DNA of 32,000 nucleotides from Paracoccus suum (GTDB lineage Bacteria > Pseudomonadota > Alphaproteobacteria > Rhodobacterales > Rhodobacteraceae), in contig NZ_CP030918.1 in assembly GCF_003324675.1 (NCBI RefSeq), positions 1,140,001 through 1,172,000 of the forward strand, read 5' to 3'. The notes below the pieces were generated by a model that did not search any database, had not been told where the DNA came from, and was given only the letters and a program-made list of their open reading frames with translations. Shown here piece after piece: positions 2,948 to 17,443 of this stretch; within the stretch, counting starts at the first letter, position 1; every line of letters begins with the position of its first letter. Made by a program: the position numbers and the translations under genes.

Positions 2948-3135
2948 GGCTTGGCTACCGCCGTGGTCGCGGCGCTCTGTTCAGGGCGCGGGCTTCTGAT
3001 GGGACGCGCACTCAGCTTTGCGCTGGTTGGGCGGCCGTTGGCGACCAGCCATTCGTTGCCCTTCTCATCTCTTTAGAGAGCGCCACGACTTCAAGCTGCC
3101 GCTGCCCGGCGTGACCTGCGCAGGCAGTTGCTGGA

Positions 3136-8463: not shown

Positions 8464-8540
8464 CGGAGCGTAGCGCAGCCTGGTAGCGCACCTGCTTCGG
8501 GAGCAGGGGGTCGGAGGTTCGAATCCTCTCGCTCCGACCA
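8464..8540 (+). tRNA. tRNA-Pro (anticodon CGG)
   Basis: Cloverleaf read by hand: acceptor CGGAGCG/CGCTCCG, D arm GCGC-AGCCTGGTA-GCGC, anticodon stem CCTGC/GCAGG with loop TTCGGGA, T loop TTCGAAT, encoded CCA. Confidence 0.95.
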
Positions 8541-8544
8541 TTTC

Positions 8545-8658
8545 CCGGTTGTTTGGTGGCAGATAGTTCTGCCTTTCTGATCAGTTAGCTTGCCTCTGGG
8601 CTGCGATTGTTCGAGCGAGTCCCGGAAGTGAGGGGCGTTCGGCTTGCCCGAATCTCCC
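8545..8658. repeat. Repeat copy 1 (attL-like, B-O-P'): 36-nt core plus right-hand arm, starting 4 nt after the tRNA CCA
   Basis: 8545-8599 matches 11115-11169 at 53 of 55 positions. 8630-8658 matches 11198-11226 at 27 of 29. Contains the palindrome GGCAGAtagtTCTGCC at 8558-8573. Confidence 0.85.
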
Positions 8659-8744
8659 GAACAGTTGCGCACTGGCGGCTCGCTCGGAGATCCGAACGAG
8701 TGCGAGGGTCGGCGGATCGTTGCCTCTGATCGAGCCTGAGCGCC

Positions 8745-8918
8745 TTAAACACCGATCAACCAGAAGCCCCACAGGATTGCTGCGATTCCGATAATGAACA
8801 GGGGCCATGAGTTCATCTCAACCGCACCCCCAAGCGCCAAGCCCCCAATTGCGAAAAGTACAACCCCCAGCCAATATCCAAGCAGCATGTGGACGATATA
8901 CTTGACTGTCTTCCACAT
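8745..8918 (-). CDS. Small two-helix membrane protein (57 aa), absent from the ORF track
   Basis: Hand translation gives MWKTVKYIVHMLLGYWLGVVLFAIGGLALGGAVEMNSWPLFIIGIAAILWGFWLIGV*. A GGAGG Shine-Dalgarno lies 6 nt upstream of the ATG (minus strand GGAGACGGAGGACCAGATG). Confidence 0.6.
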   Translation of the reverse strand: MWKTVKYIVHMLLGYWLGVVLFAIGGLALGGAVEMNSWPLFIIGIAAILWGFWLIGV

Positions 8919-9121
8919 CTGGTCCTCCGTCTCCTGCCATTTTTGTACTTGTCAGGGTGTTGCGGGCATGGACAATCCGCACCCGCGCCGTTTCCCCTGA
9001 TGAAACCAGTGCAACGATATTACGCGCATTCATTCCGGATGCGCACTTGCCCAACCTTCGTGGGCCTAATCTCGATAACCTAGGGAGTTGGCACCTGCCC
9101 CCAGTTCGCCGCGATGCGAGA

Positions 9122-9886
9122 TCATTCCTCGATCTGCGCCTCGAAACCACCCGGGGCCAGCAGGGTGAGGAAGGCGACGACCCAGGACGGCTCGGCCGTG
9201 ATACGATCGATCACCAGATCGGATCCACTCGCAAAGATTTCGGGGTCGGTATCTTCGTCTGCGATCTCGGGCGGGTTGAAGACGCCGAGGACGCTGAAGC
9301 TCAACCACGCATCCTCTGTCTCGACGTCGGGCACCGCCACCTTCTTGGCGCGCACGGTATCGCCGCGAAGCTGGTCCAGCCCATTGGTTGGCCCGGCGGG
9401 TCGCAAGGGATCGAAGGCGCGCGGCTTGCCGCCGGCGCCCTCGGCGGTGACGCGGACGGCGGCGATGGCATCGACGAAATCACCGCCTGCATAAACCTCG
9501 CGCGCAGCCGCCTCGTCGCCGTCGAAGGCATTGAGCACCATTTCCCACGAGCGCGGCGGTGTTTGGTTGAGCGTATGCACGAACCGAAGCAGCAGCACGA
9601 TCAGGTCGGGATGGCGTGGCCCACCGTCATAGCTGATCAGGAAATGGCCGCGCTCAGGCTCCGAAAACTTCAGCGTGGCAGCGCCCGCAGGCCCGAGGAA
9701 GCCCTGCCGCAGCAGTTGCGCGACGTCGGAAAGCGAGTCGGGCATTTCCTCGCGGTTGTGGGTGATGTCCTTCCCGTCCGCGGCCTGATCGACCATTGCG
9801 ACGTCGATCCGCGCCGCCACGATCATCGGCGGGATGGCGGCGGGTGCCGTCAACCGCGGCGGCAAGACGTCGAGAATGCTCATCAT
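9122..9886 (-). CDS. Hypothetical acidic protein (254 aa), no recognised family
   Basis: ATG overlaps the stop of the upstream gene (ATGATGA), which suggests translational coupling. Asp/Glu-rich with no catalytic motif recognised. Confidence 0.65.
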   Translation of the reverse strand: MMSILDVLPPRLTAPAAIPPMIVAARIDVAMVDQAADGKDITHNREEMPDSLSDVAQLLRQGFLGPAGAATLKFSEPERGHFLISYDGGPRHPDLIVLLLRFVHTLNQTPPRSWEMVLNAFDGDEAAAREVYAGGDFVDAIAAVRVTAEGAGGKPRAFDPLRPAGPTNGLDQLRGDTVRAKKVAVPDVETEDAWLSFSVLGVFNPPEIADEDTDPEIFASGSDLVIDRITAEPSWVVAFLTLLAPGGFEAQIEE

Positions 9887-10830
9887 GGTTCCTTATTGAA
9901 ACGGGTGAGATAGGCCGCGACCCGGTCGAGATACTCAGCATCGCCAATGGCATCACCAAACAGACTGCCGCGCGCCACCTCGAAGGGATACCGGACATCG
10001 GCCAGAACCCGCGCGATCTCGCGATAGGCCGAAATATCCTCGCCGCGTTTCACGTCGCCCCAGATCGGCGCCGGGCCAGCCTTGATGATGACGGTGTTGC
10101 CGCGTTTTTCGACCGTCACCCCAGGGACCTCGGCCAGGTCACCAAGATCCGGGATCCGGTCGAGGAACGACGGACCAATCAGCGTCTGCCAGCCGATATC
10201 GGCAATCCCCGATTCGACATTCGGATAGCGATCGAAGGGAAAGAACGACCGTTCCTTGCGAATTCCCCCGTCGGGACCGGACAGCTGGATTTCGATGGCG
10301 CAGCGATAGCGTGCGGTCGTTTGCGGCAGGTTGAAGATCAGGCTGTCGAGGTTCTCGGGCAGGTAGAAGCCGTAGCCGACGACGCCGCAGATCATCGGCA
10401 AGACCGAAAGCATCTCGACCACCTGGTCGGCCAGAGCGAGGTCGGGACCTTCCGGTCCTTGATCGAACTCGACCATCACCATCCCGACGCCTTCCTCAAG
10501 GCAGAAATGCGGAGCAATCGTCAGGTCCTGGTCTTCGTCATAGGTTAACATCCGCAGGGTGGTCGGAAAGCTGTGCGGCGGCGTCAGCAACCACTCGCGC
10601 GCAGCAGCGAGAGCCTTTGCCGTCGCCTTCGTAGGCCTGCCCTTTTTGCCGCGTCCGCCCTGCATGAGGTAAAGCGACACCTCCCCAAAACGTTCGACAT
10701 AGAGGTCGAAGAGCGGGACCAGACGCTCGACCATCGAAGGGTCCGCGAGCGAGCCTTCGATCCAGGCCAGGGTCTTGAAGGCCGGTCCCGCAAACGGCTC
10801 ACCCTCGTAGTTCAGTGGTTTCGGCGTCAT
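9883..10830 (-). CDS. DUF3396-like protein ('type VI immunity family', Imm52-like); the family call is tentative
   Basis: The C-terminal block IGWQTLIGPSFLDRI...VIIKAGPAPIWGDVKRGEDISAYREIARVLADVRY matches my recollection of the DUF3396 pattern (W.TLLG ... AGE.P..GD.N.G ... Y..VA..L.P.R). GAGGTG Shine-Dalgarno 8 nt upstream. Confidence 0.6.
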   Translation of the reverse strand: MTPKPLNYEGEPFAGPAFKTLAWIEGSLADPSMVERLVPLFDLYVERFGEVSLYLMQGGRGKKGRPTKATAKALAAAREWLLTPPHSFPTTLRMLTYDEDQDLTIAPHFCLEEGVGMVMVEFDQGPEGPDLALADQVVEMLSVLPMICGVVGYGFYLPENLDSLIFNLPQTTARYRCAIEIQLSGPDGGIRKERSFFPFDRYPNVESGIADIGWQTLIGPSFLDRIPDLGDLAEVPGVTVEKRGNTVIIKAGPAPIWGDVKRGEDISAYREIARVLADVRYPFEVARGSLFGDAIGDAEYLDRVAAYLTRFNKEP

Positions 10831-10996
10831 GATCGCTCACCTCTGAGGGCTCTGCGGCGTCCTTATTCGTCGCAGTTGCAGGTCGCGTTGTCGACCTTCT
10901 CGGGCACACGGCGCGAGGCGCACGGATCTGCCAAGGAGTATCTCGCGCTTTGATCTCGGCGATTGTTTGCGCCTATGTGCGCAGGTTAAAGGCTTA

Positions 10997-11226
10997 TGAG
11001 AGGCAAACGCATCTGAGAAAAAAGGCAGAATCCGCTCCGCATCGCGGTTTTTGGCCTCTTTGTTTCGAAAAGGTATTTTCGCGTCGTGAAGGCAAAACTA
11101 TTTGACTGCACCCACCGGTTGTTTGGTGGCAGATAGTTCTGCCTTTTTGATCAGTTAACTTGCCTCTGGCATGCGATGGGCGAAGCCGTGTGCAGCGGAG
11201 GGGCGTTCGGCTCGCCCGAATCCCCC
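10997..11226. repeat. Repeat copy 2 (P-O-P', attP-like junction between the two cassettes)
   Basis: Left arm 10997-11114 is homologous to 13011-13126 in conserved blocks (TGAGAGGCAAAC identical, CTTTGTTT, AGGCA blocks). Core and right arm 11115-11226 are homologous to 8545-8658. Confidence 0.85.
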
Positions 11227-11498
11227 GGCCTGAGTGCTAATCTTTGACGGTCAGTGCCGCGACAATTAGATCGGCGAGCGCATCGGGTGCTTCGGTCTCT
11301 CGAAGCGCACCGTGCCAGATGACAGCGCCTCGGCGGCGCCTATCAACCCAACACAAAGAGGCCGAACCATGTGCGGTGGGCGGTCATTCGTTGGTCGACA
11401 TATCGCAATGGTCCCGCAATCTGGCCAGGCGGGCCGTTAAGCGTCGCGTGCTTCACAGCTCTGAGGACATGCTGCTCCCATCGAGGAACACTGCTGGT

Positions 11499-12146
11499 TC
11501 AACGAAGGTTCGTGGCATGGTCCTGAAGAGCCTGAGCCAAAGCCTCGTCTGTTTGATTGGTCGAGATCGGAGCGCTTGGTCCTTGGGCGCCATCGCGAAC
11601 CAGAGTTGGTACGCCTTTTACGCCTTGGGTCCGTGCGGTTTTCTGATCGTCCTCGACCTCTCCGACCCCTTCGCCGCTTCGCAAGAACAGTTCCGTCAGG
11701 CGAGGGTCAATCCCCACCGACTGTGCTATCCTCACCAGCACCTCAGGATCGGCAATGTTCGAACCTTCGAGGTGATACGCACGGAAGACAGCCTCGTTGA
11801 GCGGAGAAGCAAGCCCGAGGTGCCGCGCGAGCTTGGCAAGGCAATGAGCATCCCTTGTGTTGACGGGACGTGCGAGGTCCAGGCGCAGGACCAGGCCTTC
11901 CTTCCGCCCGGCCGACCTGATCCGCGACATGCGAGCGTTGGCCTGGGCAGTGTCTGGGTACCATGTCCGCATGGCCTGCTCGACTGTCGGCCCGGGAATC
12001 TGGCCGGCGTCGGGATCGAGTTGAAAAGCCCGCCAGATGATTTCTGGGCAGCGGCCCATTGGGATATGCGCAAGGGTTCGGTCGATTTTCCGGAGGGCAA
12101 TGTAGCACCAAGGGCAGACGTAGTCCGAGAACACCGAGATGGTCAT
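11499..12146 (-). CDS. DsbA-family thiol oxidoreductase (FrnE / 2-hydroxychromene-2-carboxylate isomerase-like)
   Basis: N-terminal SDYVCPWCY (CPWC redox motif) and GVKGVPTLV cis-Pro region. About 215 aa. Confidence 0.85.
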   Translation of the reverse strand: MTISVFSDYVCPWCYIALRKIDRTLAHIPMGRCPEIIWRAFQLDPDAGQIPGPTVEQAMRTWYPDTAQANARMSRIRSAGRKEGLVLRLDLARPVNTRDAHCLAKLARHLGLASPLNEAVFRAYHLEGSNIADPEVLVRIAQSVGIDPRLTELFLRSGEGVGEVEDDQKTARTQGVKGVPTLVRDGAQGPSAPISTNQTDEALAQALQDHATNLR

Positions 12147-12481
12147 GCCGAGGTCTCTCGGGGCCAGACAGTTGACAACTCTCTAAACGTCTGCCGGCTG
12201 CCTTGCGTGTCATGAAGCCGGAAGGCCGCATCGAGCGCAGCGAGACGCCCTGCAGTGTCGGAAACCTGCTCAAACTCGCGCATTGCCGCCTCGCTCTCCC
12301 ACTCCACGATCACCCGCACAAGTCGTCCATCGGTGCTCGCAAGGAAACGTGCGGACCGAAAACCAGCGTAGGGTGCCACCCAATCCTCTTGGATGCGTTG
12401 GAAGGCCCCGGCGATCTCGGCCTGCCGCTCGGGGGAAGGAACTGTGTAGTCGATCATGGAAACGAAGGGGGGAGGCGGCAT
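12143..12481 (-). CDS. ABM (antibiotic-biosynthesis-monooxygenase-like) domain protein
   Basis: About 100-aa ferredoxin-like domain pattern (...RFLASTDGRLVRVIVEWESEAAMREF...). 4-nt overlap with the dsbA-like start. The start could also be the ATG at 12457. Confidence 0.6.
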   Translation of the reverse strand: MPPPPFVSMIDYTVPSPERQAEIAGAFQRIQEDWVAPYAGFRSARFLASTDGRLVRVIVEWESEAAMREFEQVSDTAGRLAALDAAFRLHDTQGSRQTFRELSTVWPRETSA

Positions 12482-12504
12482 GGATCATTTTCCTGTGCAG
12501 TGAT

Positions 12505-12521
12505 GCTGTCAGGCTGACAGC
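12505..12521. promoter_or_regulatory. Candidate HxlR operator: 17-bp palindrome GCTGTCAG-G-CTGACAGC in the divergent promoter region
   Basis: Perfect 8-bp inverted repeat with 1-nt spacer, between the ABM/DsbA operon start (12481) and the hxlR-type start (12589). A second small palindrome CTTTCaGAAAG lies at 12533-12543. Confidence 0.4.
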
Positions 12522-12588
12522 TGGTAGGCTTACTTTCAGAAAGCTTGTAGAGAAGCGCAAGAACGCACCTTTTCGTACGGGCCCCAGC

Positions 12589-12954
12589 ATGACCGACATG
12601 AGCGAGCGACAGGGACCCCTGAAGAGTGGATGCGTCTGGAGAGAGGCCTTTGCTCTCGTCACCAGCCGCTGGGGCATCCTCATCCTGATCGCACTTGGCC
12701 AGCGTCCTCTGCGTTTCTATCTCCTGCGCGACTCTGTAGAGGGCATCAGCGAAAAGATGCTGTCGCAGACACTGAAACTCTTGGTGCGAGACGGGTTCGT
12801 CGCGCGACATGCAGACGGCTCGGCTCCCCCCCAGGTCACATATAGCCTGACACCCTTGGGGAAAGGTTTAGCTGAGCGCCTCAATGCTGTCTCGGAGTGG
12901 CTGGGGGCACACCTCGACGAAGTAAATGCAGTCAGGCAGCGCCAGAAGCTCTGA
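12589..12954 (+). CDS. HxlR-family winged-helix transcriptional regulator
   Basis: From the internal ATG: ...CVWREAFALVTSRWGILILIALGQRPLRFYLLRDSVEGISEKMLSQTLKLLVRDGFV...YSLTPLG, typical of the HxlR family. Confidence 0.85.
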   Translation: MTDMSERQGPLKSGCVWREAFALVTSRWGILILIALGQRPLRFYLLRDSVEGISEKMLSQTLKLLVRDGFVARHADGSAPPQVTYSLTPLGKGLAERLNAVSEWLGAHLDEVNAVRQRQKL

Positions 12955-13010
12955 CATTCTCCAAGCGGTATGAGCGACCGTGAGCGCAGTTAGGAGGGAG
13001 GTTTGGCCCC

Positions 13011-13162
13011 TGAGAGGCAAACCTTTCTGACTAAAGAGGCAGTCTCGAGTCCGTACCGGGATTTCCCAGCTTTGTTTTCACTGGATCGGTTCTGGACATA
13101 GAGGCAGGTCTTTGTGACCACCTTCACCGGTTGTTTGGTGGCAGATAGTTTTGCCGTTTTGG
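13011..13162. repeat. Repeat copy 3 (attR-like, P-O-B'): left arm plus core; homology ends after the core
   Basis: Core 13127-13162 matches 8545-8580 at about 32 of 36 positions. Left arm matches 10997-11114. Downstream sequence is unrelated to the right arm of copies 1 and 2. Confidence 0.8.
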
Positions 13163-13251
13163 CCTATCTATCTGCCTTCGAGGACAAAACCGCTTCCTGC
13201 CAACTACCTTGAAGCGCGGATTCAGGTGGGATCGCGTTCAGCCCGCGAAGC

Positions 13252-14079
13252 TCAGTTGCGGGCACCCATGATGCGCGCAATTTCCGCGCCCGGCAGGGCG
13301 GCATCAGCATAGCTGAATGTCCCGAGATCCCGGACTTCTGCCGCCGCACGGTAGAGCGCACCAAGAGCTGCACGCGCGAATGATCCGCCAACACTGATCC
13401 GGCGGACGCCCGCGGCCGACAGTTCGTCTACCGACCAGTTTGGTCCGCGAAGGCCCATGACCACGTTGACAGGTTTGTCGAGCGCGTCGCAGACCGTGCG
13501 GATCGCCCTCAGGTCCGGCAGGCCGGGTGCATAGAGGACATCTGCCCCGGCCTCCGAAAATGCTTGGAGGCGGTTGATAGTGTCGTCCAGATCGGGGTTT
13601 CCGCACAGGAAGTTCTCGGCGCGCGCTGTCAACAGAAACGACCTGTCTCGCGCTGTCTCGGCCGCCGCCCGCACGCGTTCGACCGCGAGTTCGAACGTGT
13701 AGATAGGCATGTCGGGATTGCCTGTCGCATCCTCGATCGAGCCACCAATCAAGCCTATCTCGGCCGCCTCCCGTATCGTTCGAGCACAATCCTCCGGTGC
13801 GCCGCCAAATCCATCTACCAGATCGGCGGAGACGGGCAGGTCGGTTGCGGCCACAATTTCGGCGGCGTTCGCCAGAATTTCCTCACGGCCAAAGCTGCTC
13901 GAGGAGTCGAGTTTACCCTCGAAAAAGGCATAGCCAGCACTGGTCGTAGCCAAGGCCTCGAACCCAAGATGTGCTAGGAGTCGCGCTGTACCGGCGTCCC
14001 AGGGGTTGGGAACAACAAACGCGCGGTCTTGTGCATGCAGCGCGCGGAAACGTTCGAACTTTTCGGTCCGCTCGGCCAT
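13252..14079 (-). CDS. Isocitrate lyase / PEP mutase family protein (2-methylisocitrate lyase or carboxyvinyl-carboxyphosphonate phosphorylmutase-like)
   Basis: FVVPNPWDAGTARLL, ATTSAGYA, PVSADLVDGFG, GGSIED and LLTARAE motifs. GGAGA Shine-Dalgarno upstream. Confidence 0.9.
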   Translation of the reverse strand: MAERTEKFERFRALHAQDRAFVVPNPWDAGTARLLAHLGFEALATTSAGYAFFEGKLDSSSSFGREEILANAAEIVAATDLPVSADLVDGFGGAPEDCARTIREAAEIGLIGGSIEDATGNPDMPIYTFELAVERVRAAAETARDRSFLLTARAENFLCGNPDLDDTINRLQAFSEAGADVLYAPGLPDLRAIRTVCDALDKPVNVVMGLRGPNWSVDELSAAGVRRISVGGSFARAALGALYRAAAEVRDLGTFSYADAALPGAEIARIMGARN

Positions 14080-14369
14080 CGGTCTCTCCTCAAGCGCCGC
14101 GTGGCTCAGATGCCAGCTCTAGGAACCTTGTCGACCAAGGGGGATGATCCGCTCGAATGTCAACTAAGACGCCCCCGCATCGCACCGGCAGCGGCGGGAA
14201 ACCCTTCTCTGAACTCGCGACTCGCGCCGGCGATGCTCCGGGCCTCTGGTTATGGTATGGCATGCGTGGAAACCATTAATTTTTCCCACTCATTTATTAC
14301 CTGGCCCGAAAGGTGATAAAACCCAGGCGTGTTGTTTCGACATTCAAAGCCAAGATATTCTAGATTTCG

Positions 14370-16207
14370 CTAGCCGTCCGTCGACCGCACTGTGGGTCCG
14401 GAAGCTTGCCATTGCCTGGACCTGCGCCAGTCTTGCCCTTCAAGATACCCTTTGAGAAACGGCCCCGTGATCGACTGCTTTGACCTCAGCATTTCTTTCG
14501 GCGAGCCTTTGAAAATTACACGGCCTCCGCGCTTACCCGGACCCGGGCCCATCTCGACAATCCAGTCTGCTTTCGAAATAACCTGGAGATTGTGCTCCAC
14601 AACGATCAACGATTTTCCGCTCTCGATCAGTTGATCAAACAGCCCAAGCAGGTGGTCGACGTCAGCCATGTGCAACCCCGAGGTTGGCTCATCGAGCAGA
14701 TAAGTCGAGCTCTCTCGCCCCAGTTCATCGGCGAGACGCAAGCGCTGACGCTCGCCACCGGACAGCGAGTTCAATTGCTGACCTAATCGCATATAGGCGA
14801 GCCCGACGTCGCGCATGCGCTCCAACGGCGCGGCGATGGCGCTATCATCCGAAAAGGCCTTAAGCGCCTCAACCACAGGCAACGTTGCGATATCGGCGAT
14901 CGTGCGTCCGGCGATCTTAACTGCCAATGCAGCGTCAGAATACCCCGAGCCGCCGCAGCTTCTACAGGGCACCTCAGCGGTATCCATGAACGCCAAATCT
15001 GTGCGGATGACTCCGAGGCCGCGACAGACCGGGCATGCTCCCGCAGAGTTGCTGCTGAACAGGCCTGCGGCTTCGCCGCTGGCTTTGGCAAACAGGGCGC
15101 GGATACGGTCCTGAATGCCGATGTAGGTCGCGGGTGTCGAACGGCGAGATCCCCCCCAGTGCGCTTTGGTCGATACAAACAATCTCCGGATAGCGCCGCG
15201 CCAGTATCGAGTTCGTCAGCGTGCTCTTGCCGGAGCCTGCAACCCCGACGATGACCGCCAGGACCCCGAGCGGCATATCGGCGCTGACTTCGTGAAGATT
15301 ATGCAGCGATGCATTGCGTATCTGTAGCTGACCCTTGGGTTCGCGAATTTTCGCTCGAAGTGAGCGAGGCTGGGTAAAGGCTTTGGCGGTTCTTGTTTCA
15401 GATCGCCGAAGTTCGTCTAGTGTGCCTTGGAAAACAATCTGCCCACCATCAGGTCCTGCACCCGGGCCTACATCGATTACCTCGTCGGCAATCGCAACCA
15501 CGTCCGGATCGTGCTCAACAATCAGGACACTGTTGCCCCTGCCGCGCAGACGATTCATCAGTTCCGTAACCTGGTGAACGTCGCGGGGATGCAGGCCGGT
15601 GCTCGGCTCATCGAATATGTAGGCGATGTCGGACAGGCTGCTGCCAAGATAGCGAACCATCTTGATCCGCTGTGACTCGCCACCAGAGAGCGATGGCGTT
15701 TCACGGTCAAGTGTCAAGTAATCCAGCCCGAGGTCGATCAGAGCCTGCAAACGATCGATCAGCGTATCGATAACGGAAACCGCCTCCTGGGCATCAATCT
15801 CGCGCAGAAAGGCGATCAAATCGCCCGGCTCCATGGCTCCGCAATCGGCGATGTTGCGACCCTCGATCTGGCACGCCAAGACTTCAGCCTTAAGCCTGCC
15901 ACCATGACAGGTGGGGCAAGCCTTGCGGGTCAGAATTTTTGCCAACGCCCCGCGTTCCGGTTCCGTCAAGGCATCCAGATCGCGGCGAAGGTAGGTGCGC
16001 CTGATGCGCTTCGTATGTGGTGCTCGTCATCCATCCCGGGAGTGGATTGGCGACCGGGGTTCCCTCCGCGTCGATCAACTGCCGCCGTTCCGCCTTCGTG
16101 TATTTTGCCAAGGGCTTGTCATTGTCGAAAAAACCGGTCAGCGCGTAGCGTTTCCAGCGGTAGGAGCCCACGTCCCAGCCCGGGAAGAGAAAACGGTCCC
16201 TGATTTA
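14370..16207 (-). pseudogene. UvrA-paralogue (excinuclease ABC subunit A-like ATPase), 5'-truncated with at least two frameshifts
   Basis: Three consecutive minus-strand ORFs in different frames carry UvrA blocks: zinc finger CPTCHGGRL, signature LSGGESQRI, IFDEPSTGLHPRD, Walker A GVAGSGKSTL, RSTPATY, CPVCRGLG, LSGGERQRL and LLDEPTSGLH. One shift falls in a 7-nt G run (coding strand) at 15151-15157. The frame opens only at about 16207, with no N-terminal ATPase half. Confidence 0.85.
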
Positions 16208-16226
16208 TCGAGCGGGATGGATCTAA

Positions 16227-17320
16227 CATAGCATCAACGTCGACGTCATCGATGCCGCCCAGCCCCTCATGGACCAGTCCGGCGTGCCGGGACGCTATGT
16301 GATCGCCGAGTTCGCCCATGATCCCGACCTCAGCCTCCCCACGACCGACAGCGAGAAAGTGACGCTGACTCAACTGCGCGACATCCGCACCGAGGCAGGT
16401 GCGATCTACCCCTCGAACTCCACCCCCTTCAGTAACGTCGGAGAGCGAGGAACAGCGTTTCCATTCGCGGTGTCGATGCCTGGGAGCAAAACCATTGGTG
16501 GTGGGACGACGACCGCGCCACGTGGCTGGAATGCAGCATCTATCTGCCCAAGTCGTTTCTGGCCGATGGCGGCGAGGACAAGGCCTATGCCCTGCGGCTC
16601 GCGATCACGCATTCGGGCACCAGCTACGACGGAACCTGTGAGGAAACGCTGACCGAGACCTGCATCGCCAGTATCTGGAGCATGCCGGAAGAGCAGGCCC
16701 AGCGCGAATGCGTGGTCATCACTCCTAGGTATGAACGCACCACAATGAATGACTATTGGGAACACACCCATGACGTCGAAAACACATATCGACTGGTCGA
16801 ATCCCTTCTGTCGAATACATGGAATTACGGCAATCCGAACCTGGATGATCGCCGCGACAAGGTGCTGAAGATCGATCCCAAGCGGGTCTATTGCACGGGC
16901 TGGTCGATGGGGGCCATGACTTCGTTGTGGCTGATGGCCAAACACCCCGAGACTTTCGCGGGCGGCCTGATTATCGCGGGCCAGCAGCGCCTCGCCGATG
17001 TCGAAACGCTGGCCACGCAAAACGTGCTGATCATCACCGGGAGCTAGGACAACAAGGCGACCCCCTGGAACGAGCAATGCGTGCCGGTCTGGCGCGATGC
17101 GGGCGCCAAGGTCACGCGCCCGGCCGAGACCTTGGACCCGTCGCTCATCTTCCCGATTCAGGATCAGCAAAATCTGACCAGTCAGGTTGACGGCTACCTG
17201 GAGCAGGGTGGTAACATCACCTTCTTGACCTTCCAGGGGGTCGATCACATGGGCTCGGCGCGCAAGTTTTTCTACATTAAGGCAGCGCGCGAATGGCTCT
17301 TTCGGCAGGCCAAAGCCTGA
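16227..17320 (+). pseudogene. Alpha/beta-hydrolase (esterase-like) gene disrupted by a frameshift (about 16400-16440) and an in-frame TAG (17045-17047)
   Basis: GWSMG nucleophile elbow. ORFs 16682-17047 and 17081-17320 share one frame, separated by TAG inside ITGS*DNKATPW. The upstream part (16269-) is in a different frame. Confidence 0.7.
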
Positions 17321-17443
17321 GGACCGATTGCGACTGCCGTCCGCAGAGCCGGAAGCGCTGCGGCAGTCATGAGCGACGAGCAATAGGCGTGACCTTGTTC
17401 GGCGCGGTGTTGACGGTCAGACAGCGTCCGCCGTTCGCCTGTG

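Follow-up and report, generated by a model that had tools for sequence, protein, structure and literature searches.

How did three direct copies of a 35-nt repeat come to stand in a row behind a tRNA-Pro(CGG) gene of Paracoccus suum, with two sets of foreign genes between them and no recombinase gene in sight? We examined this array in a 32-kb stretch of P. suum DNA (contig NZ_CP030918.1; hereafter called the window). The array probably arose by tandem accretion of two elements resembling cis-mobilizable elements (CIMEs), inserted by a site-specific recombinase that acted in trans. This explanation is based on the architecture of the repeats and their arms, an ordered array of short motifs, the lack of recombinase genes, the foreign composition of the units, the recurrence of the flank family beside tRNA genes elsewhere in Paracoccus, and a presence/absence difference found in P. 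haematequi. In the proposed pathway two circular molecules, each with a core (O) between two arms (P-O-P'), would have integrated one after the other into an attachment (att) site next to the tRNA gene. The products would be an attL, a hybrid P-O-P' junction and an attR, and each arriving element would bring a new terminator hairpin for the tRNA. The enzyme would most likely be a tyrosine integrase, either provided by a related element at another place in the cell or lost in the meantime. We infer all three of the following: the circular intermediates, the class of the recombinase and any present-day mobility.

The core pattern has three exact matches in the window, all on the plus strand and in direct orientation, against none expected from 100 dinucleotide-preserving shuffles. 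A first-pass annotation of this DNA had reported a 36-nt core in triplicate, placed 4 nt after the CCA end of the tRNA. The three direct copies do lie at 8545, 11115 and 13127, and with the tRNA ending at 8540 and copy 1 starting at 8545 the distance is also correct; the pattern as written is 35 nt long. Its first 24 nt (CCGGTTGTTTGGTGGCAGATAGTT) are invariant across the three copies. The repeat contains the hairpin GGCAGA-TAGT-TCTGCC followed by a T-run, which was scored as terminator-like in copies 1 and 2 by a simple scan, and each unit therefore gives the tRNA a terminator-like hairpin. The motif CCGGTTG precedes the hairpin at all three junctions. The copies delimit two units of 2570 bp (cassette 1) and 2012 bp (cassette 2). 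No fourth copy of the repeat was found in the window, the end of the low-GC region to the right of the array included. A second copy of any tRNA segment was not found in the window either, and where the low-GC region ends the 3' half of the tRNA is not duplicated. The tRNA gene was the sole match when the window was scanned with Rfam.

The DNA flanking the repeats is shared in pairs. To the right of copies 1 and 2, 53 of 55 positions are identical (through 8599 and 11169, respectively), and a shared hairpin block is found further to the right (8630-8659 versus 11198-11227, 93% identity). To the left of copies 2 and 3, the sequence TGAGAGGCAAAC is located 118 nt (at 10997) and 116 nt (at 13011) upstream of the core. 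Arm similarity was evaluated by local alignment scores in comparison with 2000 shuffles. The right arms of copies 1 and 2 scored 70 (shuffle maximum 33) and the left arms of copies 2 and 3 scored 35 (shuffle maximum 29), in both cases with 0 of 2000 shuffles reaching the observed score. By the same measure, similarity was at shuffle level between the left arms and the tRNA side and between the right arm of copy 3 and the right arms of copies 1 and 2. The common right arm and the common left arm described in the first-pass annotation are therefore both confirmed. The P' arms of the two cassettes are 94% identical and the P arms only about 72%.

A short motif, GGCAR, recurs through the arms and the core in a fixed arrangement. 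Counted from the core GGCAG, six sites are found at -126/-104/-37/0/+11/+32 around copy 2 and at -124/-102/-37/0/+11/+32 around copy 3. Three are direct and lie in the P arm, the sites at 0 and +11 form the inverted pair that makes up the hairpin, and the site at +32 is inverted and lies in P'. These offsets are kept despite the divergence of the P arms elsewhere. Of the longer module AGAGGCAA-N14/15-AGGCAG the window has four copies (0 expected), two of them in the P arms on the plus strand and two in the P' arms on the minus strand. In addition, the hairpin has an inverted copy at 11091-11106 (GGCAAAACTATTTGAC), with two mismatches to the 16-nt motif. By spacing and orientation the GGCAR array is the layout of a putative attP-like nucleoprotein site. 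A lambda-type attP consists of a core between P and P' arms that carry arm-type sites. The P. suum junction unit of about 230 nt is similar to it in having three direct P sites, an inverted central pair and an inverted P' site at fixed spacing, and it differs in that the arm and core motifs are identical (GGCAR) and that no integrase, Xis or integration host factor (IHF) site could be assigned. As a side observation, the P arm segment 10999-11030 and the core/P' segment 11137-11168 form an imperfect inverted repeat of about 32 nt, 106 nt apart. The att backbone amounts to approximately 250 bp per element, which leaves 2.0 to 2.3 kb of cargo.

The GGCAR sites also bear on the outer end of the array. 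The layout had been described as B-O-P' / P-O-P' / P-O-B', in which copy 3 borders native DNA (B') on its right. The pairwise asymmetry of the arms is real, but the right side of copy 3 may not be B'. The inverted sites that the P' arms have at +11 and +32 are retained there, and both the low GC content and the pseudogenes extend to about 17.4 kb; for these reasons the flank may instead represent P' of an eroded third element.

No recombinase gene was found to go with these sites. Pfam searches detected no tyrosine or serine recombinase or transposase domain in any substantial open reading frame (ORF) of the window, and tblastn with two P4-type integrases from a related locus detected no integrase or integrase fragment, in agreement with the earlier statement that the 32 kb encode no recombinase. 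Between the cargo genes and the P arms there are gaps of 166 nt (10831-10996) and 56 nt (12955-13010). The GC content is 0.609 in cassette 1 and 0.597 in cassette 2, compared with 0.668 in the left flank and 0.657 in the right flank; the region 13127-17400 is at 0.596. Both units are foreign by composition.

Evidence for gain or loss of such a unit was found in a congener. P. haematequi contigs with an identical EamA protein show three contexts. In one of them (L048) the tRNA-Pro(CGG) gene is followed by GT, TATTGACTGATAAGGGGCGGATAGTTCTGCCTTTTTGATTACGGAAGTTGCCTCGCG... and a 52-aa gene. In another (L046) a different version of the flank (AGTTTATTTTTGATAAGAGGCAGATAGTTCTGCCTTTTTGACCACGGGACTTGCCTCTTG...) comes first after the tRNA; part of a PLD-like gene comes next, and then the flank type of L048 with its 52-aa gene. 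A distance of 1,459 bp separates the two L046 flank copies. GC content is 0.52 in the insert and about 0.69-0.73 in its surroundings, and the DNA around it is 96-99% identical to L048. No integrase was found in the 1,459-bp insert and no further flank copy beyond copy 2 in P. haematequi. The comparison of strains for cassette polymorphism, proposed in the first-pass annotation, is thus positive in P. haematequi, whose assemblies differ by an integrase-less insert between two flank copies. The L048-type flank together with the 52-aa gene is also the segment found behind tRNA-Arg(CCG) in a metagenomic contig (L007), with 90% identity over 134 nt. Since the same combination stands behind two different tRNA genes, the flanks travel with the cargo and are element-borne. 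The first flank of L046 continues for about 290 nt with approximately 90% identity to the left end of the corresponding DNA in P. yeei CCUG 32053. Those 290 nt (L046 11140-11400; L003 8050-8320; L002 8227-8577) contain only minus-strand C-terminal peptide fragments (...SAHYERLIALL...RRQRR* and ...PLSPI*), a gene remnant at the left end of the element. A lone TniQ-domain gene and IS66 fragments (L046 12905-14687) lie 1-2 kb past the second flank copy and are absent from L048.

The P. haematequi pair also helps to place the crossover. Homology between copy 2 of L046 and L048 starts 2-3 nt past the tRNA CCA, and to the left of the hairpin the spacers of the two L046 flank copies are not the same. 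If L046 and L048 are separated by a single recombination event, the crossover took place at the tRNA-proximal edge of the repeat and not in the hairpin. The P. suum data alone fit any crossover position in the 24 nt, including ATAGTT at the end of the block. In a lambda-type core, two inverted core-type sites enclose an overlap of 6-8 bp in which the strands are exchanged. Candidate core-type sites are GGCAG-ATAGTT-CTGCC, or CCGGTTG next to the tRNA end, and the comparison with P. haematequi favors the tRNA-proximal edge. By analogy, the P. suum crossover probably lies within the 24-nt invariant block, near CCGGTTG at that edge. The sequence first called the core does recur as a direct repeat, but much of it (the hairpin) probably belongs to the P' arm.

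Relatives of the flank were found in other Paracoccus. In blastn searches with the junction unit, phages gave no match; among plasmids, those of P. yeei were matched by the hairpin part only, and those of other Paracoccus by the small hairpin block. The hairpin flank is located directly behind tRNA-Pro(CGG), downstream of minCDE, on the chromids of three P. yeei strains (L002/L008, L003, L019). The contents beyond the flank vary among the three strains and are rich in insertion sequences (IS). Strain CCUG 32053 departs from the other two just past the +32 site, and TT13 and FDAARGOS_252 share at least about 150 nt of flank. Two closer relatives of P. suum (L009, L012) have a degenerate version of the hairpin part. 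A degenerate 22-nt hairpin pattern hit four loci in metagenome contigs. Two of these are linked to tRNA genes: in L004 the hairpin flank behind tRNA-Pro is followed by a type I restriction gene, and in L007 this type of flank stands behind tRNA-Arg(CCG). The other two are chance matches, one GC-rich by an apparent coding region and one AT-rich. An exact 20-nt core search of 185,579 species-representative genomes (P. suum evidently not included) gave only a chance match in Algoriphagus, and IMG/VR scans with hairpin, P'-arm and P-arm patterns yielded nothing or chance-level matches. In the two collection scans, chance matches aside, the repeat or its hairpin part was found solely behind tRNA genes; the repeat is not a dispersed intergenic repeat, the outcome that would have spoken against the first-pass annotation. 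No recombinase gene was found near the family members seen (P. suum, the three P. yeei strains and the three P. haematequi contexts). Paracoccus mobilome and virome papers report prophages at tRNA-Pro(TGG) and tRNA-Arg(CCG), and those checked do not mention a flank family like that of P. suum. If the accretion reading holds, the 3' flanks of tRNA-Pro(CGG) and tRNA-Arg(CCG) stand out as a variable hotspot across Paracoccus. A minor feature, the 27-nt GC-rich hairpin GGGGCGTTCGGCTYGCCCGAATCYCCC of both P' arms, has 94-97% identical copies on plasmids of P. aestuarii, P. tegillarcae and Paracoccus sp. AK26; in the two plasmids inspected (L028, L029, about 3001-3031) it lies near genes for DUF3768 or zincin-like metallopeptidase proteins.

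Other Rhodobacteraceae carry a different native flank at tRNA-Pro(CGG). In a metagenome-assembled genome of this family with EamA P0018 the site is invariant and the native flank is again different. In another Rhodobacteraceae species, known from metagenome contigs L020-L027, the leuB-...-EamA-tRNA-Pro(CGG) locus has no insert in some cases and one of two different elements of about 9 kb in others; tRNA-Pro(CGG) is therefore a proven integration hotspot. The 9-kb elements have a P4-type integrase gene adjoining attR. They also encode DUF3987 or primase-helicase-like proteins, and they bring a duplication of about 45 nt from the 3' half of the tRNA. These classical P4-type islands (Arm-DNA-bind_3 + Phage_integrase; L021, L022) share with the P. 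suum units the same tRNA-Pro(CGG) and leuB-...-EamA-tRNA neighborhood, strain-polymorphic insertion, short repeated arm motifs and the supply of a new tRNA-proximal flank. They differ in their size, in the integrase of their own next to attR and in the duplicated tRNA 3' half (seen in L022), none of which the P. suum units have. Because they lack both tRNA duplication and integrase, the P. suum units do not belong to the classical tRNA-integrating islands. Small-RNA genes serve as integration sites elsewhere too. In Dehalococcoides, for which tandem genomic islands at the tmRNA gene ssrA are reported, a vinyl chloride reductase island is integrated at ssrA and, as far as the consulted part of that account goes, is similar to the P. 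suum case in using a small-RNA gene for site-specific integration and different in recombinase content and target gene (PMC3146451).

Several observations weigh against accretion by a recombinase in trans. No cognate integrase, and no integrase-bearing relative with these P and P' arms, was found in the fetched loci, the PLSDB plasmids or IMG/VR, and the search for such an element that the first-pass annotation had proposed was negative in these collections. For the P arms, nothing similar was detected outside the window. The sharing of GGCAR by core and arms is atypical of heterobivalent integrases. In P. yeei no second flank copy was found, either within 50 kb downstream in TT13 or in the 20 kb also scanned in this species, and many family members would then be attL-only. 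The P. suum evidence comes from one 32-kb window of the one genome on record.

The closest known systems are CIMEs, as defined for elements of the ICESt1/ICESt3 type (integrative and conjugative elements, ICEs) in streptococci; CIMEs have kept their att sites and have no integration or transfer genes (PMC5704250). The P. suum units are likewise bounded by attL- and attR-type repeats, and no integration or transfer genes were found in them; they also follow one another at a site linked to a tRNA gene, joined by a hybrid att junction, as explained by successive site-specific integrations. They differ from CIMEs in that no related ICE, integrative and mobilizable element (IME) or prophage with the same att was found, in their very small size (2.0-2.6 kb), in showing no remains of lost modules, in their alphaproteobacterial host, and in that the repeat lies in the 3' flank and terminator of the tRNA, not within the target gene. 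In structure, the P. suum units fit the CIME definition, with mobilization putative. The array is an example of an already known mode of genomic-island growth and not a new kind of system. If the accretion reading is true, it is a clean minimal case, with two complete att-bounded units and almost no backbone, in a genus whose mobile-element work has centered on plasmids, insertion sequences and prophages.

The CIME concept itself presumes decay of an ICE or IME (PMC5704250), and the units could be fossils, i.e., remains of larger integrase-bearing islands or prophages that lost the integrase and most genes, are now immobile and have att scars in decay. This account, the main rival, which differs from the accretion reading solely in history and present state, appears possible but doubtful. 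It gains from the visible decay of the segment past copy 3 (UvrA fragments and an esterase pseudogene), from the divergence of the P arms to about 72% identity, from the integrase-bearing 9-kb elements at the same tRNA in a related species and from the P. haematequi insert with only a truncated PLD-like gene. It has to explain, however, why the 166-nt and 56-nt gaps leave no room for integrase remnants and tblastn found no fragment, and how deletions could have spared both arms exactly, in P. suum twice and in P. haematequi once more. The identity of the 24-nt block in three copies and the preservation of GGCAR sites in diverged arms also argue against scars in decay.

A bolder extension of the accretion reading can be formulated for the genus. 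It posits a Paracoccus family of miniature cassettes (1.5-2.6 kb, about 250 bp of att backbone) located behind tRNA-Pro(CGG) and tRNA-Arg(CCG) and moved by a never-adjacent recombinase, which would be host-encoded or domesticated, or else provided by a remote helper. Such a family would be a tRNA-anchored gene-capture platform, integron-like in function and not in mechanism, which collects orphan type VI secretion system (T6SS) immunity, defense and redox genes. We regard this as improbable. If it were true, a host-encoded or remote enzyme serving such tiny cassettes would be of wider interest.

Inverted binding modules at both ends of each unit meant that a transposon-like reading had to be weighed, in which non-autonomous units, with the hairpin region and its inverted P-arm copy as imperfect terminal inverted repeats, are inserted at a constant position behind the tRNA by a remote transposase with a target selector (Tn7-/TniQ-like) and the direct repeat is a target duplication. 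The inverted hairpin copy GGCAAAACTATTTGAC, the CCGGTTG motif before the hairpin at three of three junctions and the lone TniQ gene beyond the array in P. haematequi L046 would suit it. But a direct repeat of 24-35 nt far exceeds a target duplication, the junction-side spacers of the two P. haematequi flank copies differ so that nothing was duplicated there, and neither a transposase in the window nor clear TGT/ACA termini were found. Inverted arm sites are equally expected of an attP. We consider this reading very unlikely.

Slightly less credible still is shuffling by homologous recombination, in which flank segments of about 60-230 nt act as portable homology and units are gained, lost or swapped by RecA (e.g., with gene transfer agent DNA) and no dedicated recombinase. 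The lack of a recombinase near any family member and the small size of the units (1.5-2.6 kb) are compatible with it, and the higher identity of the P' arms (94%) than of the P arms (72%) could reflect gene conversion. RecA, however, performs poorly in a Campbell-type insertion through 24-35 nt of identity, six GGCAR sites kept in order within diverged arms speak for an assembly of protein on DNA, and the same flank with its cargo behind two tRNA genes needs site recognition rather than long homology.

An integron-like platform (attC-like sites, captured ORFs and a platform promoter, anchored at the tRNA), for which one can cite the repeated recombination-site units between small cargo blocks and the orphan immunity genes of cassette 1, given that rAID-1 arrays of Bacteroidales have been described as integron-like (bioRxiv 10.1101/471110), is scarcely plausible and already largely refuted by the absence of IntI, other recombinase or attI in the 32 kb, by a junction unit lacking, by inspection, the RYYYAAC...GTTRRRY boundary pair, by single-strand folding of that unit into a long hairpin only modestly beyond shuffles (z -3.0 at copy 2 and a weaker -1.9 at copy 3), and by three genes per cassette facing the tRNA or both ways, with cassette 2 divergent and under its own regulator. 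The functional likeness to an integron that the first-pass annotation had seen is not upheld: platform integrase, attI and attC-like sites are all missing from the window, and the cassettes are multi-gene, of mixed orientation and, in cassette 2, equipped with a regulator. An attC site is an imperfect palindrome of about 57-141 nt, against about 230 nt for the P. suum junction unit, and integron cassettes are mostly promoterless single-ORF units that share one orientation. Judged by the consulted part of their description (PMC4889954), clusters of attC sites lacking integron-integrases (CALIN) are similar in having small cargo units between repeated sites and no adjacent integrase, and the P. 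suum units differ in having no attC features, in being multi-gene and self-regulated with mixed orientation, and in their anchor at a tRNA flank. A Xer/dif-like reading was also considered and set aside.

The features of the array and of the adjoining low-GC segment are listed in the table.

Table. Coordinates of the tRNA gene, repeats, arms and genes of the P. suum array (positions within the window).
Feature	Position	Strand	Remarks
tRNA-Pro(CGG), CCA encoded	8464-8540	+	ARAGORN; Rfam tRNA 65 bits; anchor (B side) of the array
Repeat copy 1	8545-8579	+	attL-type: tRNA on left, P' arm on right
P' arm, cassette 1	8580-8659	+	Inverted GGCAR site at +32 (TTGCCTCT); hairpin block 8632-8658
57-aa ORF, cassette 1	8745-8918	-	Hydrophobic throughout, predicted small membrane protein; no family match
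254-aa protein, cassette 1	9122-9886	-	Homologs come after DUF3396 immunity gene in T6SS effector-immunity loci
DUF3396/TsiV-type T6SS immunity protein, cassette 1	9883-10830	-	Pfam PF11876; RefSeq 'type VI immunity family protein'
P arm, cassette 1	10997-11114	+	Three direct GGCAR sites at -126, -104, -37 from core GGCAG
Repeat copy 2	11115-11149	+	P-O-P', junction between cassettes 1 and 2
P' arm, cassette 2	11150-11227	+	94% identical to cassette 1 P' over 63-nt repeat family; hairpin block 11200-11226
DsbA-family oxidoreductase, cassette 2	11499-12146	-	Pfam
ABM-domain monooxygenase-like protein, cassette 2	12143-12481	-	Pfam
HxlR-family transcription regulator, cassette 2	12589-12954	+	ATG at 12589 in ORF 12283-12954
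P arm, cassette 2	13011-13126	+	GGCAR sites at -124, -102, -37
Repeat copy 3	13127-13161	+	P on left; right side is B' or P' arm of a third, eroded element
Low-GC segment past copy 3	13162-17400		GC 0.596; no recognizable distal repeat
PEP-mutase-like gene, intact	13252-14079	-	In low-GC segment past copy 3
UvrA paralog fragments	14370-15969	-	Best PDB match 7sh1_A
Esterase-like (esterase/S9-like) pseudogene	16269-17320	+	In-frame stop

The genes of cassette 1 are all on the minus strand. The 254-aa protein shows 36% identity (E 6e-30) to a homolog in L018 and 34% (E 8e-29) to one in L016 by BLASTP. In other bacteria, homologs of the DUF3396 and 254-aa proteins are encoded as a conserved pair immediately behind Tox-PAAR-like/DUF4150 effector genes, and in the databases searched this pair was found solely inside T6SS effector-immunity loci. 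Cassette 1 contains no toxin gene, and its DUF3396 and 254-aa genes are therefore an orphan immunity pair. Orphan T6SS immunity genes are also collected in the recombinase-associated acquired interbacterial defense clusters (rAID-1) of Bacteroidales, in which a XerD-like recombinase gene at the 5' end precedes immunity genes of low GC content that all run in one direction (bioRxiv 10.1101/471110). The P. suum array is similar to rAID-1 in its orphan T6SS immunity genes, its skewed GC content and the adjacent repeated intergenic sequences that suggest active acquisition; it differs in having no recombinase, the defining component, and in that only one of the two cassettes carries immunity genes, and it is therefore not an rAID-1 array. 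Should the accretion reading be correct, it offers a route for acquiring orphan T6SS immunity genes without the toxin.

In cassette 2 the HxlR regulator gene is divergent from the DsbA and ABM genes. Among 5.8 billion proteins, the closest non-self homologs of the DsbA-family protein do not exceed 47% identity and come mainly from Actinomycetota, an indication of a distant donor for this gene. Searches through the cargo homologs found no second copy of either cassette in the databases. The segment 13162-17400 is probably an older island remnant, a third eroded element. To the left of the tRNA are housekeeping genes (serA-like, thiolase, leuB and EamA), and from about 17.5 kb rightward a PepSY_TM protein gene and a sugar-uptake operon are found.

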